From contig JANQLF010000212.1 of the NCBI GenBank assembly GCA_028280785.1, positions 93,444 to 157,443 of the forward strand: a DNA stretch of 64,000 bases, in the 5' to 3' direction. A model generated the notes under the pieces. The model saw only the letters and a program-made list of their open reading frames with translations. It had not been told where the DNA came from and made no database searches. A program made the translations under genes and the position numbers. The first letter of the stretch is position 1. Each line of letters starts with the position of its first letter. Positions 3,614-58,400 of this stretch are shown piece after piece. The DNA comes from Planctomycetota bacterium (lineage in GTDB: Bacteria > Planctomycetota > UBA11346).

Positions 3614-5527
3614 ATGGCCGACGAAAACGATGAAACTCTTGTTGCCGCAGATGCTAACAACGATGAAACCGTCGCTGCTGGATCCGCAGATACATCGGTG
3701 TCCGCAATAGCCATTGGAACAAGGATCGATCAGTATGAGATCATCGAACAGCTAGGCTCAGGCGGCATGGCTCAGGTTTATAAAGCGACTGACCAGGATT
3801 TGAAACGCACCGTCGCTCTCAAATTTCTCCATCCGCATTTGCAAGGTGATGAAAAGGTCAAGCAACGCTTTTTGCGTGAAGGTCAAGCCGTAGCAAAAAT
3901 AACTCATGCGCATGTTGTTGGTATTCATGGCATCATCGACAACGACGAACATCTTTACATGGCGCTCGAATATATTGATGGTGATGATTTACATGGACTA
4001 TTAAAAAAGAATGGCCCTTTTGAAATCGATCAAGCCGTTGAAATAATAGAGGCCGCAACCAAGGGCTTAGACGCCCTCCATCAGGCTGGCATCATTCACC
4101 GCGATATTAAACCACACAATATCTTTATTACTTCTGATGGTATTATTAAAATTGGTGATTTTGGTCTGGCTCGTAACGACGAGCAGGACTATGATCTTAC
4201 CACCAGTGGAGAAATTCTTGGTACTCCTGTATTCATGAGTCCAGAGCAAGTTAAATCAGACAAGCAAATTGACATACGATCAGACATTCATGCGCTTGGT
4301 GCGACCTTATTTAATTTAATCACCAACGAACAGCCGTTCGCTGGTGAAACGATGTACACCCTCTGTGATAATATCGTTAAAGGCGAACGACCTGATATTC
4401 GCAAGCACCATAAGAAAGCTGATAAACATTTATCAACGCTCATTAACTGCATGATGGCAAAATCAGCTGATCAACGCTATCAAGATCCTCAAGAATTATT
4501 ACAAGCCATCCAACAATATAAAAATGGTAAAGATCCCGGCATTTCACATACACATGATCTAAGCAACGAGCCGGATACTATTAAAACTATAAAAACACAT
4601 AACACTCATAAAAAACTATCACCACAACATATTATCATCATTTCCTGTGTTTTCTTTTTCTGCTGCATTGCATTTATCGGTATGTCGAGTGGTCCAATTT
4701 GGTCCAATTCACAAGGCAGCCTGTATAATGGCAGCGATCGCTACGGCAATTGGATAGAACTACGTTTTGAAGACGTACGCATGCGATTTCGACGAGTGCA
4801 ACGTGGCACATGGACCATCGGCAGTCCAAACACGGAAATAGGTCGTGGTAAAAATGAGACACAACGAAGCGTAGAATTCACAAAAGAACTGTGGTTAGCA
4901 GAAAACGAGTGCACTGAACAAATATGGCAACGTCTTAAAGAGCCCGATTCCCAGGGAGACGCTAAATCGTCAGCTGCAAAAACCAATATTAGCCTCGAAG
5001 ACATAGAAGTGCTGTTAACACAGCTTAATGAAGACTATAATGATCTAGGGGTATTTCGCTTACCTACAGAATCAGAATGGGAAGTTGCCTGCCGCGCGAA
5101 CATCGATTCGGCCTACGCCTTTGGTAACGAAAAATCTGATTTATCTCAGTATGGAAATTTTGCCGATAAGAGCAGTGGCCTTGAATGGGCCGACAAGGAA
5201 ATTAACGATAAACATAAAGTTGTCGCTGAAGTCGCATCATACAGACCGAATCATTGGGGTTTTTATGACATGCATGGTAATGTATGGGAATGGTGCGCCG
5301 ATGCTTATACCGCAAATCCTGCTAGAAAAATGAGCGGTAAGACACTGCTTGATCCATTAAACACCAAAGGATCAACTCAAGTTATTCGCGGTGGCAGCTG
5401 GCAAGAAGCCAGTGAATACTGCCGCAGCGCTAGTCGTCGTGGCACCAACCCCGACACACGTGACCCGGCAATTGGTTTCCGCTTCGCACTTGTATTAAGT
5501 AACGAAGTCCAGCAATTTATTGAATAA
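3614..5527 (+). CDS. membrane Ser/Thr protein kinase with C-terminal FGE/SUMF1-type domain
   Basis: Hanks kinase motifs are present: GSGGMAQVY, VALK, HRDIKPHN, DFG, SPE. There is one TM segment (IIIISCVFFFCCIAFIGM, about nt 4630-4690). The C-terminal FGE-sulfatase-type domain shows LPTESEWEVACR, HWGFYDMHGNVWEWCADAY and RGGSWQEASEYCRSASRR...GFRFA. Confidence 0.88.
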   Translation: MADENDETLVAADANNDETVAAGSADTSVSAIAIGTRIDQYEIIEQLGSGGMAQVYKATDQDLKRTVALKFLHPHLQGDEKVKQRFLREGQAVAKITHAHVVGIHGIIDNDEHLYMALEYIDGDDLHGLLKKNGPFEIDQAVEIIEAATKGLDALHQAGIIHRDIKPHNIFITSDGIIKIGDFGLARNDEQDYDLTTSGEILGTPVFMSPEQVKSDKQIDIRSDIHALGATLFNLITNEQPFAGETMYTLCDNIVKGERPDIRKHHKKADKHLSTLINCMMAKSADQRYQDPQELLQAIQQYKNGKDPGISHTHDLSNEPDTIKTIKTHNTHKKLSPQHIIIISCVFFFCCIAFIGMSSGPIWSNSQGSLYNGSDRYGNWIELRFEDVRMRFRRVQRGTWTIGSPNTEIGRGKNETQRSVEFTKELWLAENECTEQIWQRLKEPDSQGDAKSSAAKTNISLEDIEVLLTQLNEDYNDLGVFRLPTESEWEVACRANIDSAYAFGNEKSDLSQYGNFADKSSGLEWADKEINDKHKVVAEVASYRPNHWGFYDMHGNVWEWCADAYTANPARKMSGKTLLDPLNTKGSTQVIRGGSWQEASEYCRSASRRGTNPDTRDPAIGFRFALVLSNEVQQFIE

Positions 5528-11735: not shown

Positions 11736-13196
11736 CTAACTGAGGTTCAATAAAACTTGGCCACCTTCTTCTTTAACGCTAAAGGTTTTTAAACCTTTAC
11801 ACACGGGTTTGCGCTGCGGTAAACCGTCACGGATATCGAAACGACCATTATGTTTGGGGCATTCAACTTGCTGCCCTTTAACTAAACCTTCGGATAAATG
11901 GACTTTGCCGTGGGTACAAATACCAGAGGTCGCAAATAAATTGCCTTCGGCGTTACGATAAATAGCAAAGGTCTTTTCAGCGTGGTCAAAGCGCACCACA
12001 GACTCGGGCAGAATATCGAGTGCATCACAAACAGAAATCCAACCGGCTAACTGCTGTGGATCGGCGGAAACATAGGTTTGCGCACGCTTAGCTTCTTGTT
12101 TCGGTTCTGGCAATGGACGATCAACAAAATAAGTCGGATCTTTACGCTGCTTTAAGACCGCTGGAATAATTTCTTTCCAGGCATCGTAAATACTCGTATA
12201 TGGCGGCGGTGTGTCGTCTTTTATTAATGCATGTAATTTTGGTAAGTTATGATAAGGAACCAGCGGGAACATATGGTGTTCGATATGATAATTCATATTC
12301 CAATATAAAAAGCGATTAATGATGTTCATGTTAACGGTGCGGCAATTTAGGCGATGATCTAAAACATTTTCTGCCAAGCCAGCGTGCTGGGTTAAGCCAT
12401 AGAGCGGCATGAGCCAGCCACCATATAAACTTGGTAGACCGACAAACATCAACGGTAATAAGCTACTATAATAATAAGCCGCACCGAGTGTCGCTGCATA
12501 AATTAAAAGGTGCACTCGTGCCACCCAATAGACACGATTCCATTGATCTTTGGCCACATACGTTTGCTCATCAGCATGCATAATACCGAAGGCATGCGGA
12601 ATAACTTTTTTGACGTAAGACAACATTTGTGGAATGCCAATAAAACCCAAACATATCATTAACAATGACGGTGGACGCGGTGAAGCAATTTCTGGATCAC
12701 GACCGACAATAATGGTATCACTGTGGTGTCGGGTATGACTCCAGCGCCACAAGGTCGATTCACGCATCACCATAAATGAAGCAATTTCATAAAGCACATT
12801 ATTCATCCAATCTGTTTTAAATGCCGTACCATGACTCGATTCATGCCAGCGCGAATCGGCACTACCACCATAAATCATGCCGTAAATTAAAAATGGAATA
12901 ATAGCCCACCAGGTTCCCCATAAATAAAATCCAGCAGCACCACTACCAATTAATATGCCGAACCAAAATATCGAATCACGTATAGCTGGCCAATTGCGAC
13001 GCGCGAGCAGCTTGCGCATTTCTGCAGGCTCCACTGGACACTGATACCAATCAGCTTCAGCGTAGCCTTTTTGAATGGCTTCTTGGGTCCGTTCACCCAC
13101 GAGACTGTAGTCGTTTGGAGTCTCCCACTCTGTCTTGTGCTGCGCTGCTGCCGTGCTGGCCTTGGTCTGTGGTGGCGGGGTAACCGTTGCGCTCAT
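11736..13196 (-). CDS. membrane fatty-acid-desaturase/hydroxylase-family di-iron oxygenase fused to a C-terminal Rieske [2Fe-2S] domain
   Basis: His boxes HESSH, HTRHH and HIEHH. Rieske motif C-T-H-X16-C-P-K-H (CTHGKVHLSEGLVKGQQVECPKH). The ATG at 13196 is preceded by AGGAG with a 7-nt spacer. An upstream in-frame ATG at 13223 is the alternative start. Confidence 0.85.
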   Translation of the reverse strand: MSATVTPPPQTKASTAAAQHKTEWETPNDYSLVGERTQEAIQKGYAEADWYQCPVEPAEMRKLLARRNWPAIRDSIFWFGILIGSGAAGFYLWGTWWAIIPFLIYGMIYGGSADSRWHESSHGTAFKTDWMNNVLYEIASFMVMRESTLWRWSHTRHHSDTIIVGRDPEIASPRPPSLLMICLGFIGIPQMLSYVKKVIPHAFGIMHADEQTYVAKDQWNRVYWVARVHLLIYAATLGAAYYYSSLLPLMFVGLPSLYGGWLMPLYGLTQHAGLAENVLDHRLNCRTVNMNIINRFLYWNMNYHIEHHMFPLVPYHNLPKLHALIKDDTPPPYTSIYDAWKEIIPAVLKQRKDPTYFVDRPLPEPKQEAKRAQTYVSADPQQLAGWISVCDALDILPESVVRFDHAEKTFAIYRNAEGNLFATSGICTHGKVHLSEGLVKGQQVECPKHNGRFDIRDGLPQRKPVCKGLKTFSVKEEGGQVLLNLS

Positions 13197-13283
13197 GCAA
13201 ATGCTCCTGAAGCCATCTATCATATCGAGTCAGATTTAGGAAAGAATGCTTCTATTTGTCGAAAACATATCTAAAAGTGTCAT

Positions 13284-18135: not shown

Positions 18136-20283
18136 ATGTCTCGCATACTACTTTCGACTTTAGGAATCATCATGACTGTATTAACTGCCAACGAACTGAT
18201 CAGTGTTGAAATCGCCAAAGCCCACGATGGTGGTGAAATTCGCTACGATGGGATTTGCTATGACTATCGCGATGCCAAAGCACAAAAAGGCATCAAGCTG
18301 TGGCTACCACCAATCGATGAACCCATTCGGGCTATTTTATTTTTTGGCAATCCAGGTTCTGGTGGCGACACACGCGACAAAGCGTTAAATCGCACTTGGC
18401 AAGACTGGGCCGCACAACGTCAATTGGGTATTGCTGGTGTTACTTGGTTTCGCGGTGGTGAAATTTATCACAAAACCGGAAAAAATATTCTTGCTGTTTT
18501 TAATTCATGGGCAGAGCTTGGTCATCATCCTGAGTTAGCAGACATTCCATTTATTCCACGTGGCAGCAGCAATGCTGGCATGACTGCTTACGGTTTATCG
18601 TGTTATGTGCCTGAACGCATTGTCTGCTTTACCTCTAATGTCGGTGCGCGATACAATCCTTTTATGCCTTCAGAAAAAGCACTGCAAATCCCCGCCCTAC
18701 AACACATTGGTCCGGTTGATCGCTTTATGCCACTCGGTCTTAAAGATACGGCTGAATTGTATCAACGTATTCGCCCATTTAATTCGCTTTGGGCTTGGGA
18801 CGCTGAAGAAGGAAAAGGTCATCAGGATTTCAGCCAGCTACATATCGACTTAGCCTTTTATTCAGAAATTCTTGATAGACGTTTACCCCAAGCAGGTGCA
18901 GATATCCAAACGGTTCAATACGACGAAGCATGGTTAGCCGACACCAGTACCTGGGCCAATCGCTGGCCACCACGTCCGTGCCACATTGCCAGTTTTAAAG
19001 ATTATAAAGGCAATAAAGATACCGCCGTTTGGCTTGCTGGTGAAGCCACTGCCAAGGCCTACCAAGCTGCCGCCTCTTATCATAAACGCATTCAATTAAC
19101 AATCGACGACCTTGTTACAGTCGGTCCAGCCGACGGACAATGGAATATTAATGATGCTGATTTACCTACGGTCAATCCTGATGAAGAAATTGTTCTGCGT
19201 ATTAAACCCTTGCAAAAGAATCGCATGATTAATTGGAGCAAAATCGAATTCTTTAATGGTTCTCAATTAATTGGCACTGTCACTCAAGGCAATGAGCCTG
19301 TGTTGAAAACCAAAGCACTCCCAGGGAAAATTGAACAAGTATTCACCGTTATTGCATACGACGATGAAAGTGGTGCTGAATACGTTGCTAATCCCTTTGG
19401 TGTGGTTGTTCGCAATAAATCTATGAGTGATCGCATCGGTGAACAAATGCAAACTTATCATCAAGCAATCGCAGCACCATCAGTCCCACACGGAACCGCA
19501 CTAGACAAGCTTGCTTCGATCGAAACAGGAAATGACAAACTAATTGCGCACGCATTAAATGAACAACAAAGTGCTGAACTTATACAGTCGGACTCCCTGC
19601 CTGGCTTTTGGCAAGATGTTCCGGTCACATCACTTGCTCAGATTACCCGACATGATCATAGCGTTGGGCGTGATAAAGCGAAAAAGCCACAAGATATAGG
19701 TGTGGAAATGCGCGCGGTGTATTGTCGCGCTGGCCTCGGCCTTTTGTGCTTAGTCACTGATGACGACCTCAATGTTAAAGATGGTTTTGATTGGCATTGT
19801 TCATGGCAAGACCCGCGTGAATTTTCCAAGAAATCCGTTTTAGAAAATTATATTACTGGCGAACGTGATTTATTATTAGAAGCAGTACAATATCATGCCA
19901 GCTTTGAACAAGCAGGTGGAACATTGATCCGCAATATTCCGCGCGGTGGCTTGCTACACTTAGGCGATCGCAAGCAAACATTGCAAGAAGCATTTGAACA
20001 AGAAGGCATTAAAATTACTTTCCAAAATTGGTCTGATGGACGTCAAGCCGTGCAATGGTTTTTACCATGGTCGGCCGTTGGTATACCTGCGCAACGCGAA
20101 CAGCCAGTTGCCGGAACACATTTAGCATTAGTACTTGGCGTTAATGATCACGATGAACAAGATGATAATTCCAGCCTACGTTGGCCACATGCTCGTGATC
20201 CATGGCATAATCATGACTTTGATCATCCACATCCACAAGTGTGGGGCTCGCTCGTTCTTGGGTCTGCTTTACCTAGAAAATAA
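18136..20283 (+). CDS. secreted or anchored protein of unknown function (possible alpha/beta-hydrolase-like N-domain; tentative)
   Basis: N-terminal hydrophobic segment MSRILLSTLGIIMTVLTA. The ILFFGNPGSGGD and PRGSSNAGMTAYG segments vaguely resemble an oxyanion hole and nucleophile elbow. The C-terminal half has no motif I can name with confidence. Confidence 0.45.
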   Translation: MSRILLSTLGIIMTVLTANELISVEIAKAHDGGEIRYDGICYDYRDAKAQKGIKLWLPPIDEPIRAILFFGNPGSGGDTRDKALNRTWQDWAAQRQLGIAGVTWFRGGEIYHKTGKNILAVFNSWAELGHHPELADIPFIPRGSSNAGMTAYGLSCYVPERIVCFTSNVGARYNPFMPSEKALQIPALQHIGPVDRFMPLGLKDTAELYQRIRPFNSLWAWDAEEGKGHQDFSQLHIDLAFYSEILDRRLPQAGADIQTVQYDEAWLADTSTWANRWPPRPCHIASFKDYKGNKDTAVWLAGEATAKAYQAAASYHKRIQLTIDDLVTVGPADGQWNINDADLPTVNPDEEIVLRIKPLQKNRMINWSKIEFFNGSQLIGTVTQGNEPVLKTKALPGKIEQVFTVIAYDDESGAEYVANPFGVVVRNKSMSDRIGEQMQTYHQAIAAPSVPHGTALDKLASIETGNDKLIAHALNEQQSAELIQSDSLPGFWQDVPVTSLAQITRHDHSVGRDKAKKPQDIGVEMRAVYCRAGLGLLCLVTDDDLNVKDGFDWHCSWQDPREFSKKSVLENYITGERDLLLEAVQYHASFEQAGGTLIRNIPRGGLLHLGDRKQTLQEAFEQEGIKITFQNWSDGRQAVQWFLPWSAVGIPAQREQPVAGTHLALVLGVNDHDEQDDNSSLRWPHARDPWHNHDFDHPHPQVWGSLVLGSALPRK

Positions 20284-20284
20284 T

Positions 20285-21547
20285 TTAGGCAGCGCGCAGG
20301 GCTTCTATTGGAACGACCTGTGCCGCTTGCTTAGCTGGCCAATAACCAAAAACAATGCCAGTAATAACCGCGGCAATAAAGCCAACGGATATATTTGCTA
20401 AGGTTACTAAAACTGGCCAACCCGCATAATTGGCGACCGCTAAAGTTAAACCGTAGCCAAGCGCAATGCCAAGCAGGCCTCCAAACGCAGAGAGCACACT
20501 CGCCTCAAAACAAAATTGAAATAAAATATCACGTTGTCGTGCACCGAGCGCACGCCGGGTTCCAATCTCGCGCTTACGTTCAGAGACATTAGCCAACATA
20601 ATATTCATAATGCCAATTCCTCCGACCAATAAAGAAATACCTGCAATAGTTGTCATAACTAACGAAAAAATTCGCTTAGTGCTTTCCTGCTGACGTAAAA
20701 TAGCCAAGGGAATTTGCATACTGCAATCACCTATGCGGTTTTCTTTATCTAACCAACGACGTAAACGCAATGCCATTGGCTGAACAAATTTGGCAGACTC
20801 GAGATCAACCATAATTGCATCAATTTGGGCAATTGGTTGGTTTTGCTCATCAAAGTAAGGATCACCACTCACATTGATCGCTGTGGCTAATGGGATAAAA
20901 ATAACATCGTCTATGTCAGTTCCCGCCAACGCAGTTGTATCATTCGTATTATCAAGCACACCAACTACGGTAAACGGCATGCCTAAAATATCGATGTGTT
21001 TACCAATAGGATCGTTAAATAAGAAGATACTACGCGCGGCTTTCTTACCGATAACACAATGATTTGCCAATCGTTGTTCATCGAGATCATTTAAAAAGCG
21101 ACCGCTGGTCATTGTTGCGCCAACTAATTGCTGATAAATTGCATTGGTAGCCACCACCGAAACAGCAGTCTCGCGCCCTTGCATCGAAAACACACTCGAT
21201 TTTAAAATGCGTGCAGCTGCAATATGTTCAACACCAGGCATATTTTCACGGATATGCTGACAGTCCTTCAGCAGCAAACCTGGCCGTTCTACTTTGGCAA
21301 TTTCACTATCTTCTTCATCTAAGGTTTTTTCAACTAACTCGGTGCGCAAAAATATTTTATCGACACCAAGTGTGGCAATACCGGCCAAGGCTTCTTCTTT
21401 AGCCCCTTCACCGATACATAACATAGCCTGAACAGCTGCGACACCAAAAACAATACCAAGCGTTGCTAGTGCTGTGCGAAAACGCCTAAAATAAAGGTCG
21501 GCGATCGAAACAGAGACCGCATCAATAATATTCATACGACCAGACAC
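20285..21547 (-). CDS. MacB/DevC/LolC-type ABC transporter permease (FtsX fold with periplasmic domain)
   Basis: The N-terminus ...FRRFRTALATLGIVFGVAAVQAMLCIGEGAKE is the typical TM1. A roughly 230-aa periplasmic domain follows, then three C-terminal TMs with ...ERKREIGTRRALGARQRDILFQF.... It overlaps the ATPase gene by 16 nt. Confidence 0.88.
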   Translation of the reverse strand: MSGRMNIIDAVSVSIADLYFRRFRTALATLGIVFGVAAVQAMLCIGEGAKEEALAGIATLGVDKIFLRTELVEKTLDEEDSEIAKVERPGLLLKDCQHIRENMPGVEHIAAARILKSSVFSMQGRETAVSVVATNAIYQQLVGATMTSGRFLNDLDEQRLANHCVIGKKAARSIFLFNDPIGKHIDILGMPFTVVGVLDNTNDTTALAGTDIDDVIFIPLATAINVSGDPYFDEQNQPIAQIDAIMVDLESAKFVQPMALRLRRWLDKENRIGDCSMQIPLAILRQQESTKRIFSLVMTTIAGISLLVGGIGIMNIMLANVSERKREIGTRRALGARQRDILFQFCFEASVLSAFGGLLGIALGYGLTLAVANYAGWPVLVTLANISVGFIAAVITGIVFGYWPAKQAAQVVPIEALRAA

Positions 21548-22212
21548 CCATCGCGCATTTTTAAGACTTTTTGTACACGACTTTGATACTCGCTATTATG
21601 CGTCACCATGATAATGGTTTTACCCGCATCAATAAGACCATCGAATATATCAAGTATCTCTTCGCCACGTTGCTGGTCTAAATTACCGGTTGGTTCATCT
21701 GCCAGTATTAATGGTGGATCAATTGATAATGCACGAGCAATAGCAACACGTTGCATTTCACCGCCTGATAATTGGCTGGGTCGATTATAAAGGCGATGAC
21801 TTAATCCGACTCGTTCAGCCAGCGCTTCGGCACGATCTTGGCGTTCCTGACGCGACATCCGCGCATAGAGCATTGGCACCATAATATTGGACAAAACATC
21901 ATACTGCGGAAATAAATTAAAACTTTGGAAAATGAAACCGATTTCTTTATTTCTCACAGCGGCCAAATCATGATCACCAAGATTTGCCACCTCTCGATCA
22001 TTTAAGTGATAGGAACCTTTATCTGGCACATCCAATAGGCCAAGAATGTTTAGCATGGTACTTTTGCCTGAGCCGGAAGGACCCATGATCGCTACATACT
22101 CACCAGGATGAATATCAAAATCGATATCCTTCAAAACCTCTATTGGGGTATGACCAATTTGATAGGTTTTGTGAATATCCTTGAGACTCAGTAATGGCTT
22201 AGTGGCAATCAT
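21532..22212 (-). CDS. ABC transporter ATP-binding protein (MacB/LolD/DevA type)
   Basis: Walker [10 protein letters not shown], signature [15 protein letters not shown], Walker [13 protein letters not shown] and H-loop VTHN. Its start overlaps the MFP stop in ATGA (22209-22212). Confidence 0.95.
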
Positions 22213-23684
22213 TGCATCACAGACGTCAGGTCTTCAGCAGGATCAATTAAAGTAACTACATCCTTTTCTTTGATACCTTCAGCAATTTCCACAACAAATG
22301 CATTCATAATGCCGAGCTTCACATCACGTCGAATAAATTCTTCCGCATCTTTTACGTAACAGAAATACGCCCCATCTTCGCTAAAAATCGCTTCAATCGG
22401 AACAGCTATTATCGCCTCTTTGGTTTCACCAATTAAGGTCACACGCGCGGTCATGCCACTGACCATCCGTGAATCATGACCCGTTAATTCAACCGTACCG
22501 GTATACACTTTTGGACTTGATGGATTATTGCGCTGACGCGGTTTGGCTAATTGAGATATAGATTGCAGAACACCTTCTATCATTAATCCAGGAATGGCTG
22601 GGATCTCTATCTGCGCCTTGCAACCAACAGCTATACGTCCACGTGCATGTTCAGAAATAGGCACCTGCACCGAGAATTTACTCATATCCGGAATAGTCAT
22701 CAGTGTATAATTCCGATACGCATTACCCCCAGCTTTTAACTCACGACGTATCCAATGCTGATTGCCTGCTTTTGGATCGCCATAAATAACCACACCAGAA
22801 ACTGGTGCGGTTACTTCACATTTACCCAAAGCTTCGGTGGCCTTCGTTAGTCGACGTTTATATTGTTCTATTTGCTTTTCTAAATTGGTTAATTTATTTT
22901 TATGATTAACCATGGCCTGTTTGGCCCGTCCTTTTTCCTTATCCACTTCTAATCGAGCCCGTTCTAAATCACGCTGGCGCTTTAACATCTCCTTTGGATA
23001 AGTGCGGCTTTTGTAGAGATTTTTTTCGTTGATAGCAGCTTCCAATTGCTTCAATGTGTTGGTTATCGATGTTTTCGCCGCATTGAATTCTTTTTCTAAC
23101 TTTTCACGGACATCAGCTTCAACAAATACGCTTTCATCAAGCTTATTTTGTTTTTTATCAAATTCAGTTCGTGACTGAGTCAACTTCTGTTCAGCATCCT
23201 CGATCTTTTTATCTAACTCGTTGCTCTTTTTAATACTATCGATCTGCTTAAATTTACGCAGCGCTTCCTTTGCTTCATCATATTTAATCTGTGCATCTTC
23301 GATCCAACTTTGAGCAATATTTTCTTCGGTCTCAGTGGCTTCAGTGTAGAAGATCAAATCTTCTTCCTTTTTCTTCAATTCTATAGTATTATTTTTAATT
23401 TCATCTTCGTACTGCTTACGCTCCAACACTAATACCTTATCACCTTTTTTAACTTCAGTTCCCTCTTTGATGATCCACTCAATTTTTCCACGAATTGAAC
23501 GCACACCATGTGATTTGACGGCCTGCAATTGTCCGCTTTCAACGGTACCAACCGAAATATCTTGGCGTTCAACAGTGTACAACAACGCTTCGTCAATTTG
23601 ATGCTTTTCAGGCAAGACATCACCGCTCAGGTACCACCAGGCACCTGCAGCGATGAGTAGACAGATACTAACCCATTTAATCAT
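22209..23684 (-). CDS. HlyD/MacA-family membrane fusion protein (periplasmic adaptor) with an extended coiled-coil hairpin
   Basis: N-terminal TM anchor MIKWVSICLLIAAGAWWYL. Lipoyl-like halves (...GTEVKKGDKVLVLE... / ...VTAPVSGVVIYG...) bracket a K/E-rich heptad region of about 200 residues (roughly aa 90-290). Confidence 0.88.
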   Translation of the reverse strand: MIKWVSICLLIAAGAWWYLSGDVLPEKHQIDEALLYTVERQDISVGTVESGQLQAVKSHGVRSIRGKIEWIIKEGTEVKKGDKVLVLERKQYEDEIKNNTIELKKKEEDLIFYTEATETEENIAQSWIEDAQIKYDEAKEALRKFKQIDSIKKSNELDKKIEDAEQKLTQSRTEFDKKQNKLDESVFVEADVREKLEKEFNAAKTSITNTLKQLEAAINEKNLYKSRTYPKEMLKRQRDLERARLEVDKEKGRAKQAMVNHKNKLTNLEKQIEQYKRRLTKATEALGKCEVTAPVSGVVIYGDPKAGNQHWIRRELKAGGNAYRNYTLMTIPDMSKFSVQVPISEHARGRIAVGCKAQIEIPAIPGLMIEGVLQSISQLAKPRQRNNPSSPKVYTGTVELTGHDSRMVSGMTARVTLIGETKEAIIAVPIEAIFSEDGAYFCYVKDAEEFIRRDVKLGIMNAFVVEIAEGIKEKDVVTLIDPAEDLTSVMQ

Positions 23685-23693
23685 CGCTGCACC

Positions 23694-25007
23694 TTACTGA
23701 ATCAAATCTTGTTGTTGCTCTAAGGCTTTCTTCTCGGCCTCTTTCTTTAATCGCAGTTTTTCTTTCTTCGGATCACGCATCTCTGGTGGCGTTAATAAAT
23801 CACCATCGAGCTGTTCCATGCCACGACCCGGAATATGAATACGCGCTTCGCCACTTTTCCCGTCATCCAAAATATGAATGCGTAAGAAAAATAAGAGCTG
23901 CGTACGCGCGTGCGTTTCGCGACGGCTGCGGAACAAAGCACCTAATAATGGAATATCCCCAAGTATTGGGGTTTTACGAATACTCTCGCGATCTTCTTCA
24001 CGAACCAATCCACCAATTGATAAGACTTCACCATCTTTAAGACGTAATGTCGCACGCATTTGTCGAACTGCCAAAATCGGACTCGTTGCACCTTCAGGAC
24101 CAGTAGAAAAACCAGTTACTGCTGAGACCTCAGGATTCACTTCAATTTCAGCTGTGTCGCCGGCAATTTGCAGAGCCTTAACCCGTAACTTTACACCCAC
24201 CTGTTTAAATGTTGTCGATACCTGAATATTACCACCGGAAAAGGTTGAAGAGAAAATAGGAACTTCTTCACCAGTAATAATGCTGGTTTGCCCACCAGCA
24301 GCGACGACGACATTAGGGCTTGATAAAATATTCGCCTGCCCTTTGTTTACTAAAGCGCGAAAAAACGTGTCCAAGCGTTTTAAACCATCAGTACTGGTCC
24401 ACGGACGTAAATTTAACAATGAACCCTGATCAACTAAGGGCGCATTGCCTGGTGTATCTAAATCAATTTCAGAGCCGGTTTGCACACCACCACGCAAACC
24501 ACCAGATGTTTGAGTGAACAAATGATTGAGCTCAATTTCCAAATCATCATCCAAATTCACTTCTACGAGTCGTGCTTCCACCAATAGCTGTGGTCGCGAC
24601 TGATCGAGCTCTTTTAACAATTCGAGCAGCTCAGAAACCCGTCCCGACATTTCGGATAAAATAACCGCGTTCAACTCACCGGATATCGACAGCGTGCCCT
24701 CGAGACCAATAAAGGATTTAACAGCATCACGCAGCGTTTCTGGGCGTTGATGTTTACAATAATAAATCAAATGAGACCGATCACCGGTATTAACAATACG
24801 TGGCTCTGGCACTGCGTGCACAATCCCTGTATTATTAATCATATTCCTGATTACTAATGGGGGCGTTTCACTAAAAAGTACTGAGCCAGTAACTTGTTTA
24901 CGCGGTTTGCTGCAGGCGCTTACAGCTAAGCAGCACATGACCATTCCGGTCAGGATAATCGATTTTCTCAAAGCTAATCTCGATACGATAGAGTGGTGGA
25001 TGCGCAC
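23694..25007 (-). CDS. secretin-family outer-membrane channel, predicted lipoprotein
   Basis: GTG start and signal peptide with lipobox (...GMVMCCLAVSAC). One secretin-N-type domain. Canonical C-domain ANILSSPNVVVAAGGQTSIITGEEVPIF...VGVKLRVKA...LKDGEVLSIGGL...TPILGDIPLLGALFRS. Lys/Glu-rich C-terminal tail. The stop lies 9 nt before the MFP start. Confidence 0.88.
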   Translation of the reverse strand: MRIHHSIVSRLALRKSIILTGMVMCCLAVSACSKPRKQVTGSVLFSETPPLVIRNMINNTGIVHAVPEPRIVNTGDRSHLIYYCKHQRPETLRDAVKSFIGLEGTLSISGELNAVILSEMSGRVSELLELLKELDQSRPQLLVEARLVEVNLDDDLEIELNHLFTQTSGGLRGGVQTGSEIDLDTPGNAPLVDQGSLLNLRPWTSTDGLKRLDTFFRALVNKGQANILSSPNVVVAAGGQTSIITGEEVPIFSSTFSGGNIQVSTTFKQVGVKLRVKALQIAGDTAEIEVNPEVSAVTGFSTGPEGATSPILAVRQMRATLRLKDGEVLSIGGLVREEDRESIRKTPILGDIPLLGALFRSRRETHARTQLLFFLRIHILDDGKSGEARIHIPGRGMEQLDGDLLTPPEMRDPKKEKLRLKKEAEKKALEQQQDLIQ

Positions 25008-25067
25008 GAGACGTAGAGAATTTCAGAACCTGTCCGGGTTTTTATAACAGATAAGGGGTTCAAAGCA

Positions 25068-25535
25068 TTAAGCAGCGATAGCGTTGCTCCACTTCTGGTC
25101 TAGTGCTGTTTTTATTTGTTTACGCTGCATTTGATAAGCCTCGTTGCTGAGGCACCACTTTAAAAACCGTATGACCGCGCGTCGTTGCTTAATGTTTAAG
25201 GTAGCAAATCGACCTTGGCCACGATGGCTCACATTGGTCAGATGAAAGAGAATCTTATGATTCCCTTCGCCGCGCAATTCCGCCAACATATAAGCTGGTA
25301 AATGAAAACGCATGCCATCGGCATTAAAAAAGTGTAGAGAGGTCTCACATTCAATGAGTGTTTCGGTAGTCAATCTACCCCAATCTCGCTTTTCATCATT
25401 ATCGCGGATCTTTCGCAACGTGTCGAGATCAAGTTCTTCATCTATCCCTTGAGCCTCACGCAATCCTATCCCATCACCTAACTCGACACCTTGAAAGGCT
25501 TTTTGAATACACTTCATGATTTTCTCAGAGTCCAT
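25068..25535 (-). CDS. small cytoplasmic protein of an uncharacterised conserved family
   Basis: The start is taken at the internal ATG (25535), which is preceded by GGAGG with a 5-nt spacer. The sequence MDSEKIMKCIQKAFQGVELGDGIGLREAQ...FFNADGMRFHLPAYMLAE... resembles a DUF-type family I cannot name with certainty. Confidence 0.55.
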   Translation of the reverse strand: MDSEKIMKCIQKAFQGVELGDGIGLREAQGIDEELDLDTLRKIRDNDEKRDWGRLTTETLIECETSLHFFNADGMRFHLPAYMLAELRGEGNHKILFHLTNVSHRGQGRFATLNIKQRRAVIRFLKWCLSNEAYQMQRKQIKTALDQKWSNAIAA

Positions 25536-25712
25536 GATGACCTCCCTACTATAATTTAGTGGTCGCTGAATGGCAAAAGTGGACAAAGTTTTTAAATCTA
25601 ATGAGAAACTTAACTTACAAATAATCCTTATTCGCATCGGGTTGGTTACAAATCTTTTACGCACTAACGGCCTTCTTAATCGTCTAATGGTCTGAACAGA
25701 AGGAGATAAACC

Positions 25713-26861
25713 ATGAACGGTTTTCTGACATTGCCTTGTGCACTCATTAGCGCCCTCGCCTGCCTTGCCCCCATTCAAAGTACAAACGCCAGTGAAATAT
25801 TTTCACCAGCTATCGTTACAGCACAGAGCCAACATGCACACCCGCATGAACAACGCCCTCAAATTCAAATTGCTATTTTGCTTGATAATTCAGGAAGCAT
25901 GACCGGCCTCATTGAACAAGCGAAATCGCAAATTTGGTCTTTAGTCAACGAATTTACCCACGCTAAACATAATGGTCTGCAGCCAGAATTGCATGTTTCC
26001 ATTATTACCTATGGCGATCCGCCACCACAGATGCGTCTCTTATTAAGCACCGATCTTGATCGCGTCTCACAAGAATTATTTGGTATTAAAATTAGTGGTG
26101 GTACAGAATATTGTGGCCAAGTCATTCAGCATGCGATTGATAACTTAGAATGGTCCACTGATAAAAACGCACTTAAAGTTATTTTTATCGCTGGCAACGA
26201 ACCATTTACCCAAGGACCCAAGGATTACCGCGAAGCGTGCGAAGATGCTGCGAGCAAAGGTATCATCGTAAATACCATTCATTGCGGCAATGGCATACCC
26301 GCTGGTTGGCGCGATGGAGCGCTTATTGGCAAAGGTAAAGCCATGAGTATCGATCATAATAAAACCGTTGTTCATGTTGCTACACCTTACGACAAACATA
26401 TTCATGAACTAAATATTAAATTAAATACTACGTATATTCATTATGGTAAAGCTGGGAAAAAGCGCAAAGACTTGCAAGTCGAGCAAGATGCGAATGCCAA
26501 AAAACAATCTATCGGTTCCTCAATTCAACGCTCGGTCTCAAAAGCTAATATCTATTACAATAACCGCAGCTGGGATATGGTCGATGCCTGTAAAGATAAT
26601 TGGGAAGTCTTAAAAGAGGCGAAGGAAGAAGAACTTCCAGCACAATTAAAAAATAAAACTTTTGAACAACAAAAATCCTATATCGAAGAACAACGCCAAA
26701 CACGCATTGCCATTCAAAAACAAATCAACGATTTTAATGAGAAGCGCAACACCTATCTTGCCAAACAAAGCAAAGAATCAGGCAAAAGCACTCTCAACGA
26801 TGCTATGAAAGCCTCCCTCGTCAAACAAGCCGAAGGCAAAGGCTACACTTTTAAGAAATAA
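25713..26861 (+). CDS. secreted von Willebrand factor type A (vWA) domain protein with coiled-coil tail
   Basis: Signal peptide MNGFLTLPCALISALACLAPIQS and MIDAS motif DNSGSM (IAILLDNSGSMTG). The C-terminal K/E/Q-rich helix follows. AAGGAG lies upstream of the ATG. Confidence 0.8.
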   Translation: MNGFLTLPCALISALACLAPIQSTNASEIFSPAIVTAQSQHAHPHEQRPQIQIAILLDNSGSMTGLIEQAKSQIWSLVNEFTHAKHNGLQPELHVSIITYGDPPPQMRLLLSTDLDRVSQELFGIKISGGTEYCGQVIQHAIDNLEWSTDKNALKVIFIAGNEPFTQGPKDYREACEDAASKGIIVNTIHCGNGIPAGWRDGALIGKGKAMSIDHNKTVVHVATPYDKHIHELNIKLNTTYIHYGKAGKKRKDLQVEQDANAKKQSIGSSIQRSVSKANIYYNNRSWDMVDACKDNWEVLKEAKEEELPAQLKNKTFEQQKSYIEEQRQTRIAIQKQINDFNEKRNTYLAKQSKESGKSTLNDAMKASLVKQAEGKGYTFKK

Positions 26862-55398: not shown

Positions 55399-55427
55399 TG
55401 TGTACTATATTCCTCGCTGTGTACTAT
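55399..55427 (+). repeat. two copies of the 10-nt direct repeat TGTGTACTAT, 19 nt apart, just upstream of the GT2 fusion gene
   Basis: Copies lie at 55399-55408 and 55418-55427, and the ATG is at 55442. Read directly from the sequence. This is a candidate operator or promoter element. Confidence 0.5.
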
Positions 55428-55441
55428 TAAGCTTGGAAAAA

Positions 55442-58400
55442 ATGACTAAAGCAATACTCGCTGAGCAAAAATGGAGCCCCATTCAACGTGCCTTGTTTAT
55501 TGGCACCCTCTTGGGCTGTATTGCTCTCGGTATTGTTGACTTTGAATTATTCGTCTGGCTCTTCAGTCTGTTCTTACTGGTCCTGTATAGCGTCATTGTT
55601 CTGTGCAAAGTGCTGGCAGCATTATTCGGACTGATCAACCGCTTTACCATTTATATTAAAGAAGATGAATACCAGGCACTCAGTGACGATGAATTACCTA
55701 TCTATACCATTCTCTTACCGCTTTATAAAGAATCTGAAGTTGTTGAAAAACTCGTAGCGCATATTGGTTGTCTGGATTACCCCAAAGAAAAACTCGACGT
55801 CAAAGTCCTCCTTGAGCAAGACGATGAAGAAACGCTACAAGCCGTTCAACAATTTGGTTTGCCCGATTGGTGTGATTTAATAATTGTTCCTGATGAAGGA
55901 CCGAAAACCAAACCACGAGCGTGCAATGTAGGTCTAGCTCAAGCACGCGGAGAGTTCTGCGTTATTTATGATGCCGAGGATCAACCAGAACCCGATCAAC
56001 TCAAAAAAGTTATCTGCGCTTACAAGCGACTACCTGAATCAGTCGTATGCTTACAAGCCAAATTAAATTTCTTTAATGCCAAAGAAGGTTTGCTACCACG
56101 TTGCTTTGCGCTTGAATATACAACCTGGTTTGATTTATATTTGCCTGGACTACATGCCTTACATGCGCCCATTCCATTAGGCGGCACCTCTAATCATTTT
56201 AAAACTCAGGCCCTACAAGAACTCGACGGCTGGGATCCTTATAATGTTACCGAAGACTGTGACCTCGGTATTCGCATAGCAGAAGCCGGATACGCAACAC
56301 GCATTGTCGACTCAGTAACCTGGGAAGAAGCTCCATTTAAAGTTAAAGACTGGGTTGGCCAACGTTCACGGTGGATCAAAGGATATTTTCAAACGTTTTG
56401 GGTACACACTCGTCGGCCATGGTATGGATTGCGTCGTCTCGGTTTGTGGGGCTTTTTCCAAATGCTCATCACCGTTGGTGGCCAAGTCGCCACGGTATTT
56501 CTTAATCCGATTTGCTGGCTCATCTTAGCTGCCTGGTGCTATTGGCAGTGGCCTATTATTTATGTGCATTCACCTTACACCCTTGTGTTATTCGCCATTT
56601 CACTGGCCCTTTTCCAATTTAATATTTTATTCATTGGCATACATCTGATAGGTGCACTGCGACGACGCTGCTATTTTCTCATCCCCTACATACTCTTTTT
56701 GCCATTCTATTGGATCTTGGTCAGCATCGGTGCTTGGCGTGGCGTTCTCGAATTTTTCTGGTCGCCTTATAAATGGGTAAAAACATCTCACGGCCTGACT
56801 CAAATGGCCAACACCACCTTAGACATCAAACAACTCGAAACTGAAGAGCAAAACAACGCTGCTTCTGTTTATATTAAACCAGTTATGCAAGGTGGCATTA
56901 TTCATAATTTATGCATGGGCACCTCTATACTCGTTATCACTGCACTAATCACATCATCGTCGCTCATTGCCCCGGTTTATTTTGGCTATACAGATAAGGT
57001 CGAACAAGCATCGATAGCTCTTAAAGATAATTTTATCGAAGTTGAACAAAAAATTCCTTTTGCTGAATCCTCGTGGATGGATTACGATACATTAAATATC
57101 GCCTTAAACATCAAACGAGAATCTTCAAAATTAGAGGAAGCTCTAAGCGTTAAAGACCTTCGCTTGATGTTTTACCTCAAAGTACGCAACGGGGAATGGT
57201 TTCATCAAACAATTGATGCATTTGAAATACAAGACAACACCATCAACGTCCAGTTATCCTTAAATGAACATTGGAACTCATTGCTTAATGACTTTGAGTG
57301 GTCACGAGATCTCTTGCACCGTGTGCGTTCGTTTGGCGTAAAATTATTTTACAAAGAAAGTGATAGCATTACTGCCACGATCACCGCACTGACACCTGTC
57401 GCTAGTACAGCGTCTTCATCTGAAAACACCGATCTTACCATAACATCTTTGGAAGCACCGAATGCCGCATCATGTTACGGTCTTTTTGAAGCACGTTGGC
57501 TACTTAGCAAAACATATAGCAATCCATTTGACAGTGATGTTATTCAGTGCGATGCCACGTTTACACATGAACATGGTAGCTCCATAACAATCCCGGCTTT
57601 TTACACACAAGACTACTATCAGTACAAAAGCAAGGATGGCGAAGTCTTACAACCGCGCGGGCGACCTCACTGGGCAGTCCGACACGCCCCAAGCGAGGCC
57701 GGTAGGTATACTTGGCACATACACGGCAAAGATAAATTCGGCAACACTTTTCAATCAACTCAACAAACACTTGATGTTGAACATCGAGAACACCGAGGCT
57801 TTTTAACACTAGGCAAAAACAAACGATTTTTCGCTTTTGAAAACGGTGAATTTTTCTACCCAATGTCGCTGAACATCCGTTCACCACGAGATGAAGTAAA
57901 TCATGAATATTGGAGCTTTGAAATGCCTAAAAAGGCAGATGGCACCTATGTCATGTTTGAATTTTTATCCAAAATGAAAAAAACAGGCATCAATGTTGGT
58001 CGGGTATGGATGTCACCTTGGTTTGGTAGCATTGAATGGAATAAGGATGAAGATGGTTACCATGGTTTGGGTGTTTATAATTTAAAGAATGCGTATCGTT
58101 TAGATTCAATTTTTAATTTCGCACAAAAGCAAGGCATCCTCATTGAATTAGCTTTAAATCACCACGGTCCGTTTACTCAGCAATATGATTCACAGTGGGT
58201 CTATAATCCGTATAATAAGAAAAACGGCGGTCCCGCAGCGACACCACGACATGTCTTTCCCAATCAAGAGTCACGCAGCTGGTTCAAAAAACGACTGCGC
58301 TATATCGCCGCACGTTATGGTGCTTATGCCAATCTTTATTGCTACGTTTTATGGATCGAAGCAAATGTAGTGGACCCACGACCACACGTCTTAGTAGATT

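Follow-up and report, generated by a model that had tools for sequence, protein, structure and literature searches.

Comparative genomics strongly supports the presence of a short secretin in the TolC position of a MacAB-type pump in a Planctomycetota bacterium. We consider it about 60% probable that the secretin and three neighboring gene products form one tripartite envelope-spanning ABC exporter, in which the secretin, not a TolC-family protein, would be the outer-membrane exit. Secretins are the outer-membrane gates of filament- or needle-driven machines, namely T2SS, T4P, Tad, T3SS and filamentous phage, and tripartite pumps exit through TolC-family ducts. A secretin joined to an ABC pump would, if true, break both rules, as a new co-option of secretins and as an envelope-crossing architecture that is new for Gram-negative cells. 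A hybrid exporter of this kind had been proposed in a preliminary description of the DNA. The secretin in the TolC position was upheld by its pairing with the adaptor, by co-divergence and by an OEP operon in the nearest outgroup, whereas the proposed cargo and the specificity of the long adaptor hairpin were not.

Gene layout and window contents

The window, that is, the whole 64-kb stretch of DNA that was analyzed, contains the cassette at positions 20285-25007. The four tightly packed minus-strand genes described earlier were all recovered as open reading frames, and the features are as follows.

25068..25535, minus strand: DUF6714 gene, 60 nt upstream of the secretin on the same strand
23694..25007, minus strand: short secretin, predicted lipoprotein, 437 aa from a GTG start (PF00263)
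23685..23693, minus strand: secretin-MFP spacer of 9 nt, GGTGCAGCG, junction read base by base
22209..23684, minus strand: MacA-like membrane-fusion (periplasmic adaptor) protein (MFP), 491 aa (HlyD_D23/HlyD_3 by Pfam)
21532..22212, minus strand: ABC ATPase, 226 aa, LolD/MacB-NBD-like (ABC_tran by Pfam)
20285..21547, minus strand: MacB-type permease, 420 aa (GTG at 21547) or 416 aa (ATG at 21535) (MacB_PCD and FtsX)

Base-by-base reading of the junctions agreed with the reported 9-nt gap between the secretin stop and the MFP and with the ATGA in which the MFP stop overlaps the ATPase start. The secretin TAA is followed by the spacer, in which a terminator or promoter would not fit, and then by the MFP ATG; the stop codon and the spacer together make a Shine-Dalgarno-like AAGGTG motif 6 nt before this ATG. 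The reported 16-nt overlap between the ATPase and permease genes holds if the permease GTG at 21547 is used, whereas the alternative in-frame ATG at 21535, which was chosen by the public gene call, gives a second ATGA overlap instead. The DUF6714 gene may be co-transcribed with the cassette here. It lies outside the conserved module; at the other loci, no homologue adjoins the cassette.

In all 46 ORFs that reach at least 150 aa, Pfam scans detected no OEP/TolC, GspC/E/F/G, PilMNOP, Tad or T3SS families in the window, in agreement with the earlier statement that the 64 kb hold no T2SS, pilus, Tad, T3SS or TolC gene. PF02321 (OEP) was also absent next to the cassette in the other loci inspected, and no prepilin motif was present in any frame of the window. 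The vWA gene (25713..26861), which had been suggested as a cargo candidate, is absent from all other cassette loci, as are the other window neighbors of the cassette. Genes for sulfatases and glycoside hydrolases and heparinase-like genes abound in the window.

Secretin, adaptor, ATPase and permease

The product of 23694..25007 is a member of the secretin superfamily, with a PF00263 barrel domain that carries the gate motifs (128 bits, E 3e-37, cut-off 27.5 bits) and an N3-type domain. Its parts are, in order, a signal peptide with lipobox LAVSA-C32, a linker, the N3-like domain (about 70-134), the beta-barrel domain (about 140-380), a conserved C-terminal R-x-H-x-P-G-x-G beta-hairpin (389-399) and a variable K/E-rich tail helix (413-436). 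The single N-domain noted in the preliminary description was recovered as this one N3-like domain by both Pfam and the AlphaFold2 (AF2) model (pLDDT 80). The Secretin_N match was weak (20 bits, below the 28.2-bit cut-off), the HMM alignment extends through GspD N3, and in the model residues 89-134 form a beta-alpha-beta-beta-alpha unit (pLDDT above 90). By the same two approaches N0 is absent, and PF21305 N0, which is present in Vibrio GspD matches, is absent from the secretins of this clade. The gate motifs ITGEEVP, NPEVS, GGL and P-LGDIP-LG are conserved, and G238, G246, P250, P292-E-V-S295 and G333-L334 are invariant. The lipobox was likewise confirmed, and its Cys32 is kept in at least 90% of the 35 closest relatives. 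The lipobox characterizes a subclade and does not extend to the whole family, and it is missing in the Kiritimatiellia/Verrucomicrobia subclade; N-terminal lipidation is likely in the lipobox-bearing subclade, judging from sequence.

The best Foldseek matches of the secretin were T2SS GspD chains (prob 1.0), and its profile matched GspD structures including 6i1x at E 2e-48 and pIV (7ofh) at 2e-31. All NCBIfam secretin equivalogs scored far below their cut-offs, with HofQ among the matches at low score. Assignment as GspD was rejected (TIGR02517, 161 bits versus a cut-off of 351; N0-N1-N2 absent; no Gsp genes nearby), as were assignments as PilQ, MshL and SctC (115 versus 284, 96 versus 250 and 80 versus 238, respectively) and, with no linked Tad genes in the window, as Tad RcpA. 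The secretin belongs to a clade of its own, which comprises about 47 of 34,219 secretin-related 50% clusters.

The adaptor has an N-terminal TM helix (3-20), lipoyl, beta-barrel and membrane-proximal domains and one alpha-hairpin. This MacA-like four-domain architecture was borne out by the AF2 model (pLDDT 85.7) and by Foldseek, in which the best matches were MacA in MacAB-TolC (9qgy_G, E 2e-21; 5nik_D, E 1e-18). Assignment as the HlyD of type I secretion was rejected (type_I_hlyD 42 versus a cut-off of 209). The heptad region of about 200 residues, previously read as an alpha-hairpin, was indeed modeled as a single hairpin whose two helices each have 98 residues (H90-187 and H190-287, pLDDT above 90), about 145 Å long at 1.5 Å per residue. 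A long hairpin does not mark secretin-linked pumps, however: a TolC-linked outgroup adaptor, P0131, has a 228-residue insert compared with 203 residues in the window adaptor. Because the long hairpin is common to the TolC-linked outgroup, it gives no specific support to secretin coupling. The R-x3-L-x6-S (RLS) motif at the MFP hairpin tip is a TolC-docking motif, and none was found at the tip of this adaptor or its aligned relatives. The tip (183-192, KLDESVFVEA) and its aligned counterparts are poorly conserved, and conserved positions lie in mid-hairpin (Y/F145, D149, F224, K225, Y229 and P230).

The ATPase matched ABC_tran with 120 bits, and its best NCBIfam matches, all under equivalog cut-offs, were LolD and the N-terminal half of MacB. 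The permease consists of a periplasmic core domain (MacB_PCD, 106 bits) and an FtsX C-terminal transmembrane domain (73 bits). NF007826 (MacB) aligned to permease residues 9-417 with E 1e-50, and its full-length cut-off was missed because the ATPase is a separate gene. The permease was thereby borne out as MacB-type, the class of MacAB-TolC, with negligible matches to LolC/E and DevC. Rejected candidates for the whole set were LolCDE (lolCE 19.7 versus 362 and LolD 232 versus 308; an MFP is present in the cassette), type I secretion by HlyB-HlyD-TolC (the permease is of MacB/FtsX type and there is no OEP) and DevBCA-HgdD (DevA 180 versus 296 and DevC 21.6 versus 290).

The cassette across genomes

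A survey of secretin-MFP-ABC-MacB neighborhoods, suggested in the preliminary description, showed that the pairing recurs in several phyla. Among species-representative genomes, the orthologous adaptor lies directly downstream of 47 of the 50 evaluable clade secretins and of none of the 14 canonical ones (Fisher p = 1.4e-11). The secretin-adaptor adjacency is no local accident and is far beyond chance; the three clade secretins without an adjacent adaptor are in loci L030, L037 and L040. Hosts are about fifty species of Planctomycetota, Lentisphaeria, Kiritimatiellia, Verrucomicrobiota, Sumerlaeota and Firestonebacteria. All four genes are present in 24 of the 36 loci with enough downstream sequence, and in 11 of the 36 the ABC and permease genes are not adjacent while the secretin-adaptor pair persists. 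The MFP start is no more than 60 nt from the secretin stop in 50/52 related loci, most commonly as a 4-nt overlap. Identical gene order and strand were found amid unrelated flanks in the divergent loci L001, L003, L005, L007 and L009, and all four proteins co-diverge (Mantel r 0.87-0.92 for every pair). Chance adjacency or an annotation artefact, without shared function, is effectively refuted already by these comparative data, given the Fisher test, the translational coupling and the co-divergence. We also looked for the contrary pattern named earlier, in which pumps would lie beside TolC and secretins in pilus or T2SS loci, and saw neither.

In a rough NJ tree without support values, the secretin-linked adaptors are monophyletic and P0131 is their sister. 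The P0131 locus (L090) is an OEP-MFP-ABC-MacB operon with the same gene order, and its first gene encodes a true OEP protein (87 bits). Since the operon around the nearest outgroup adaptor reads TolC(OEP)-adaptor-ATPase-MacB, the secretin occupies the outer-membrane-factor slot. TolC-family OMFs occur in Planctomycetes (Kuenenia; PMC3422733), so the secretin does not make up for a phylum-wide lack of TolC.

Proposed exporter, alternatives and known systems

In the proposed exporter, a MacB-type permease dimer and the separate ATPase would reside in the inner membrane, and the TM-anchored MacA-like adaptor would oligomerize on the permease periplasmic domain to give a tube of roughly 145-Å hairpins across the periplasm. 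The tube would engage a self-piloting lipoprotein secretin through the periplasmic N3 ring or vestibule of the latter; this secretin has lost the N0 with which other secretins bind inner-membrane parts of T2SS, T4P or T3SS. ATP hydrolysis would move cargo from the periplasm or the outer leaflet along the adaptor tube and out by the secretin gate. MacB is one of the type VII ('mechanotransmission') ABC systems, a class acting on substrates that have already left the cytoplasm. We infer the adaptor-secretin docking, the stoichiometry, the outward transport and the kind of cargo. In cis there is no cargo gene, and the cargo is therefore probably a housekeeping or dispersed substrate set, probably small proteins or peptides, a glycolipid or a polymer. 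Besides the comparative data, the missing N0, the adaptor tip without the TolC-docking RLS motif and the lack of T2SS, T4P, Tad or T3SS parts in the window speak for the exporter. Secretins form 12-15-mers whereas MacA-type adaptors form hexamers, so that a mismatch in symmetry and diameter must be accommodated. The lumen of a hexameric MacA-like tube is about 2-3 nm, and such a tube does not obviously need a secretin-sized pore, which counts against the exporter, as do the 11/36 loci without adjacent ABC and permease genes and the three secretins without an adaptor.

The synteny and co-divergence fit equally well a functional link without a continuous conduit, a reading that we regard as unlikely, if still worth serious weight. 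The MacB-type machine and the adaptor would then act on the secretin and not through it: ATP-driven mechanotransmission of the FtsEX-EnvC kind could serve to build the secretin gate, to anchor it or to switch it between open and closed, and cargo would come to the secretin from the periplasm along a different path. The position of the conserved adaptor motif in mid-hairpin and not at the tip, the secretin-adaptor pairs without adjacent ABC genes and a secretin-sized pore that is oversized for a MacA-type lumen are all consistent with this reading. The type VII ABC class includes non-transporting mechanotransducers, and PMC12646458 names FtsEX-EnvC and LolCDE among its members. In contrast, the adaptor has the full MacA four-domain architecture, with its best structural match to MacA in an assembled pump, and the TolC-family duct in the same position of the sister operon argues for equivalence as an exit channel. 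In addition, the lipoprotein secretin of the subclade probably needs no dedicated pilot, for which liposecretins provide a self-piloting precedent.

We consider it quite improbable that the secretin is the pore of a T2SS, T4P or Tad system encoded elsewhere and that the pump uses a TolC encoded elsewhere. Secretins are often encoded away from their systems and are repeatedly co-opted (PMC6668835), only 64 kb of this genome are visible, and the best sequence and structure matches of the pore domain are T2SS GspD. However, a hitch-hiking secretin would not outlast divergence to about 30% identity in at least six phyla, 4-nt overlaps are kept amid otherwise unrelated flanks, and no GspE/F/G or pilus genes adjoin the cassette among about 50 loci. 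N0, the binder of GspC, PilP or PrgH-type partners, is missing, and the NCBIfam cut-offs for GspD, PilQ, MshL and SctC are missed widely. Uptake or gated entry, in which large polysaccharide fragments or DNA would enter an enlarged periplasm through the secretin, and the adaptor and ABC parts would serve retention or gating, seems to us very improbable. Although the hosts are polysaccharide degraders, the window is rich in the corresponding degradative genes, and the secretins PilQ and HofQ (the latter a low-score match here) serve DNA uptake, no pilus or binding-protein genes are linked and the cassette lies outside polysaccharide-utilization genes in other loci. To our knowledge, no characterized MacB-family system is an importer, and all of them act either outward or mechanically.

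Returning to the exporter, we tentatively extend it to a proposal whose odds we put at slightly below even. An ABC-powered secretin system may constitute an unrecognized class of double-membrane-spanning machine that arose once, when a truncated secretin displaced the TolC gene of a MacAB-type operon, with the hairpin tube plugged into the secretin vestibule and mechanotransmission opening the gate. It would by now have spread through the PVC superphylum and neighboring phyla. The belt formed by Y/F145-D149 and F224-K-x3-Y-P230, about 60 Å below the tip, would lie at the N3 ring or gate, and mechanotransmission by the MacB-type permease would open the gate and expel periplasmic cargo, which might include exported enzymes or polymers of these polysaccharide degraders. 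The cassette would also be a candidate route of export in Planctomycetota, Lentisphaerota, Kiritimatiellota and Verrucomicrobiota. Secretion has been little characterized in these polysaccharide-degrading phyla, which are relevant to the environment and the gut, and how their exported enzymes and polymers cross the outer membrane is poorly understood. The cassette has only four genes (two in some lineages) and is therefore unusually tractable for studying how a secretin gate can open in the absence of pilus and needle; a further possible use is as a compact large-pore export module.

Secretins have repeatedly been co-opted by unrelated inner-membrane machines (PMC6668835). Known cases involve type IV filament systems, T3SS and phages, whereas the partner here would be an ABC/MFP pump; in the literature found, no paper describes a secretin-ABC cassette or a co-option by an ABC/MFP pump. 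The cassette shares with E. coli MacAB-TolC (PDB 5nik, 9qgy) a MacB-type permease, a LolD/MacB-like ATPase and a MacA-fold adaptor, and the operon logic of outer-membrane gene, adaptor, ATPase and permease matches the sister operon L090. It differs in having a secretin instead of a TolC-family trimer, separate ATPase and permease polypeptides and a hairpin about twice that of MacA with a tip lacking RLS. With T2SS GspD, it shares the alignable N3 and secretin domains and the gate motifs, although the cassette secretin is only about 400 aa, lacks N0, N1 and N2 and has no GspC/E/F/G/L/M nearby. The minimal secretin pIV of filamentous phage, also of about 400 aa, is similar to it. P. aeruginosa HxcQ is a liposecretin, and N-terminal lipidation as in HxcQ-type proteins is likely in the subclade of the window secretin too. 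Among MacB-family systems, Aat of enteroaggregative E. coli exports a small lipoprotein and cyanobacterial DevBCA-HgdD exports glycolipids, indicating that MacB-type pumps can export proteins and glycolipids already outside the cytoplasm; both differ from the cassette in their TolC-family ducts (AatA and HgdD), and the DevA and DevC cut-offs are unmet here. Although its families differ (an ABC-2 type KpsM, a PCP adaptor and an OPX/Wza-like channel, with no homology), KpsMT-KpsE-KpsD provides a precedent in which an ABC transporter, a coiled-coil periplasmic adaptor and a gated non-TolC outer-membrane channel export a bulky polymer.

Gene content and junctions of the operon

Pfam searches confirmed four minus-strand open reading frames (ORFs), in the families and at the coordinates that the preliminary description had assigned to a single packed operon.

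23694-25007, minus strand: secretin (Pfam Secretin PF00263, 128 bits; weak Secretin_N match)
22209-23684, minus strand: membrane-fusion protein, the adaptor (Pfam HlyD-type)
21532-22212, minus strand: ATPase (Pfam ABC_tran; nearest NCBIfam models LolD and the MacB nucleotide-binding half)
20285-21547, minus strand: permease (Pfam MacB_PCD and FtsX; nearest NCBIfam model MacB, E 1e-50, residues 9-417)

A Lol-like or DevBCA identity of the ABC parts was ruled out by the NCBIfam scores, matches to LolC/E and DevC being negligible. Base-by-base reading upheld the 9-nt spacer between secretin and adaptor, which contains an AAGGTG ribosome-binding-like motif, and the ATGA overlap of the adaptor stop with the ATPase start. 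The reported 16-nt overlap of ATPase and permease requires a small correction: it holds only for a GTG start, and the in-frame ATG at 21535, which is the start in the public gene call, creates a second ATGA overlap. A single base separates the permease stop (20285, minus strand) from the stop of a convergent 715-aa ORF (18136-20283, plus strand; no Pfam match), leaving no terminator space between the two genes. Promoter and terminator scans of positions 19800-26000 gave no excess over shuffled sequence (14 vs 12.8 and 7 vs 5.4) and were uninformative on transcript boundaries.

The reported absence of TolC, secretion-system and pilus genes from the 64-kb window also held up. Pfam detected no OEP/TolC, T2SS, T4P, Tad or T3SS family in any of the 46 ORFs of at least 150 aa, and no prepilin signature turned up when all six frames of the window were scanned for the motif. 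The remaining genes, among them sulfatases, glycoside hydrolases, a heparinase-like protein, AraC regulators and an FGE-sulfatase-kinase fusion, are those of a PVC-type polysaccharide degrader. Unusual fusions in the window join a Ser/Thr kinase to an FGE-sulfatase domain (3614-5527, 637 aa), a fatty-acid desaturase to a Rieske 2Fe-2S domain (11736-13223, 495 aa) and a GT2 glycosyltransferase to DUF5060 (55400-59242, 1,280 aa).

A short secretin and a long-hairpin adaptor

Searches with the window secretin returned a sharply bounded clade of proteins of ~400 aa (E 1e-266 to ~1e-58), followed by Vibrio GspD at 1e-28. When 1.84 billion cluster representatives were searched exhaustively with phmmer, 34,219 proved to be relatives of secretins; only 102 reached E ≤1e-30 and ~47 reached E ≤1e-44, the latter being the level of the adaptor-linked clade. 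The clade alignment showed, from N to C terminus, a signal peptide that ends in a nearly invariant Cys, then a variable linker and a single N-domain, followed by the canonical motifs of barrel and gate (ITGEEVP, NPEVS, GGL and P-LGDIP-LG), an R-x-H-x-P-G-x-G motif and a variable tail. The AlphaFold2 model of the window secretin (pLDDT 80) contained an N3-like unit, the barrel hairpins and a tail helix, with an extra small beta-hairpin where the conserved C-terminal motif lies, and its first-ranking Foldseek matches were T2SS GspD chains. Alignment and model thus bear out the lipobox LAVSAC (Cys32), single N-domain and canonical C-domain originally read from the sequence.

N0, the domain through which GspD, PilQ and InvG contact GspC, PilP and PrgH, is absent from the window secretin, both by Pfam and in the AlphaFold2 model. 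The R-x-H-x-P-G-x-G motif (residues 389-399) is clade-specific and nearly invariant, and its hairpin lies beyond the last barrel strand, where T2SS secretins instead carry a pilotin-binding S-domain. The window secretin scored far below every GspD, PilQ, MshL, SctC and HofQ equivalog cut-off in NCBIfam, which holds no curated model for the short-secretin clade; public annotation calls these proteins 'hypothetical' or 'general secretion pathway protein D'. The pore is a genuine secretin outside the GspD, PilQ, RcpA and SctC subfamilies. Secretin-like domains were also seen at the extreme C-terminus of unusual-looking giant proteins of ~4,000-4,400 aa (cluster representatives P0246, P0260, P0261 and P0267; E ~1e-30 to the window secretin), in one example at residues 3654-3957 of 4,024.

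The AlphaFold2 model of the adaptor (pLDDT 85.7) showed an N-terminal transmembrane helix, MacA-like lipoyl, beta-barrel and membrane-proximal domains and a single hairpin, with MacA in MacAB-TolC as the best structural match (9qgy_G, 5nik_D; Foldseek). The unusually long alpha-hairpin suspected earlier was borne out as two modeled 98-residue helices, ~145 Å at 1.5 Å per residue, and its length was constant among 18 diverse adaptors. Such length is not specific to secretin-linked pumps: the segment between the lipoyl halves measures 203 residues in the window adaptor vs 228 in P0131, a TolC-linked sister adaptor, and ~124 in more distant adaptors. The idea that the long hairpin compensates for a missing TolC tunnel is therefore not supported as stated, and hairpin length may instead reflect the dimensions of the host envelope. 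R-x3-L-x6-S, the hairpin-tip motif of MacA and AcrA for TolC, was not found in the poorly conserved adaptor tip. Conservation in the hairpin is highest at Y/F145, D149, F224, K225, Y229 and P230, which face one another at a level ~40 residues below the tip; this belt could contact the secretin ring or mediate protomer-protomer packing.

The predicted lipid anchor swaps between secretin and adaptor from one subclade to the other. The window belongs to the Planctomycetota-type subclade, where the lipobox is on the secretin (a relaxed x-x-[GA]-C on visual inspection) and the adaptor has a plain transmembrane helix. The Kiritimatiellia/Verrucomicrobia/Lentisphaeraceae subclade has an SPase-I-type signal peptide (..AQQ/AQD..) on the secretin and the lipobox (LLSGC, LCGC) on the adaptor.

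Conservation of the linkage and the TolC position

Secretin, adaptor, ABC_tran and MacB_PCD/FtsX genes lay on one strand in this order in 5/5 divergent loci (L001, L003, L005, L007 and L009; 32-53% identity), whose flanks are mutually unrelated. The gene-neighbourhood survey proposed in the preliminary description was carried out by scanning one genome per GTDB species, which yielded 79 loci that were scored by tblastn with the four window proteins. Clade-level secretins occurred in 54 loci, 50 of them evaluable in having enough downstream sequence. An orthologous adaptor directly followed the secretin in 47/50 of these vs 0/14 evaluable loci with canonical-level secretins (Fisher p = 1.4e-11), so the linkage is conserved. 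The candidate adaptor started at most 60 nt from the secretin stop in 50/52 loci, most commonly with a 4-nt overlap. Of the 36 adaptor-positive loci whose downstream sequence extended to 4.3 kb or more, 24 contained all four genes, 1 added a permease only and 11 had secretin and adaptor only. The distance matrices of the four proteins were pairwise correlated (r = 0.87-0.92, Mantel test), indicating co-inheritance. We analyzed adaptor diversity from translated loci; word-indexed searches with a single sequence or a profile gave only 19-25 proteins, probably because K/E-rich words saturated the candidate list.

The records came from Planctomycetota (Brocadiaceae, Phycisphaerae, Tepidisphaeraceae, Planctomycetaceae), Lentisphaeria, Kiritimatiellia, Verrucomicrobiota, Sumerlaeota and Firestonebacteria; the nearest named relatives in the species scan were Brocadiaceae, Lentisphaeria and Phycisphaerae MAGs. 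Cassette contigs L012 and L027 are labelled 'Candidatus Paceibacterota' and 'Bacillota' MAGs. These are implausible hosts for an outer-membrane secretin, and the two labels probably reflect errors in the binning of these public MAGs.

P0131 (E 3e-88 to the clade profile) is the adaptor that comes nearest to the clade without belonging to it. In a rough NJ tree, the secretin-linked adaptors are monophyletic and P0131 branches as their immediate sister. Its operon (L090) begins with a genuine TolC-family gene (PF02321, 87 bits) that overlaps the adaptor gene by 4 nt, and continues with ABC_tran and MacB_PCD/FtsX genes. Because a TolC-family gene heads this otherwise equivalent operon, the secretin holds the outer-membrane-factor position. 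The arrangement named earlier as contrary evidence, with orthologous pumps beside TolC and the secretin inside pilus or T2SS loci, is the reverse of what was found: the orthologous pumps do not adjoin TolC, and the secretin orthologues do not sit in such loci. The NJ trees of secretins and adaptors mirror each other. Linkage, co-divergence and the sister operon together make a strong comparative case that the secretin occupies the TolC position of a MacAB-type pump. Several TolC-family proteins are listed for Kuenenia (PMC3422733), so the secretin does not compensate for a phylum-wide lack of TolC in Planctomycetes.

Some lineages depart from the four-gene arrangement. In L029 and L035, a MacB-type permease directly follows the adaptor with no detectable ATPase gene between them. 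A Kiritimatiellia/Verrucomicrobia/Lentisphaeraceae lineage (L044-L049, L051, L052, L054, L055, L058, L059, L061 and L063; e.g. L055:5840-9574) has secretin and adaptor only, and any inner-membrane partner is encoded elsewhere. In 13/14 of these loci, the cassette is immediately preceded by a co-directional 277-aa PTS_EIIA_2 plus Zn-ribbon gene, and 9 have radical-SAM and esterase genes in convergent orientation on the downstream side. In a rough NJ tree, the adaptor-less short Planctomycetota secretins L030, L037 and L040 fall within the linked clade, which suggests secondary separation from the adaptor; L008 (P0069), a lone Planctomycetota secretin, is sister to the clade. The partners of these four secretins may be unlinked, or the proteins may serve another role.

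Proposed mechanism, alternatives and relation to known systems

The comparative data support the interpretation of the module as an ABC exporter with a secretin exit. We assign a probability of about 0.6 to a tripartite machine in which a MacB-type permease and ATPase would work at the inner membrane, MacA-like adaptors would oligomerize into a tube across the periplasm, and the truncated secretin, self-piloting in the window's subclade, would form a gated exit. Type VII ABC systems, a class described in PMC12646458, handle substrates already outside the cytoplasm, so the cargo would be picked up in the periplasm or at the inner membrane's outer leaflet. It would then be expelled as ATP hydrolysis moves the periplasmic domain. 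We infer outward transport and docking of the adaptor on the secretin; a presumed hexameric adaptor must then meet a 12-15-mer secretin, which poses a symmetry problem for the tripartite exporter.

The vWA protein (25713..26861), earlier put forward as a candidate cargo, was rejected, as its gene is absent beside the cassettes of all other loci. In tblastn searches of 88 loci, neither vWA nor DUF6714, orf715, orf881 or other window neighbours had a match next to any cassette. All-vs-all clustering of 1,024 flanking ORFs revealed no family common beyond one closely related lineage, in which a PTS-EIIA-like gene recurs upstream and radical-SAM and esterase genes downstream. The loci encode no cargo in cis.

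In the main rival explanation, the secretin is what the ABC-adaptor machine gates, anchors or assembles, and the machine conducts no cargo through it. Mid-hairpin conservation and the loci with secretin and adaptor only fit this explanation at least as well as they fit export, and we consider it unlikely overall but a serious competitor. Much lower odds apply to a hitch-hiking secretin that serves a distant T2SS or T4P, which we regard as improbable, and to an uptake device, which is slightly more improbable still; chance adjacency is scarcely credible.

Type IV filament systems, T3SS and phages are known to have recruited secretins on repeated occasions (PMC6668835). Full-text literature searches (secretin with MacB, MacAB, HlyD, adaptor or PVC) found no description of co-option by an ABC/MFP pump, and we tentatively propose, at a little under even odds, that the module represents a separate and hitherto undescribed class of secretion machine. 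Its permease, ATPase and adaptor have the features of MacAB-like pumps, whereas the cassette has neither the defining TolC partner nor the hairpin-tip motif. KpsMT-KpsE-KpsD is an ABC-adaptor-channel exporter with a non-TolC channel, and the module resembles it functionally as a putative ABC-adaptor-outer-membrane-channel exporter that operates without TolC.
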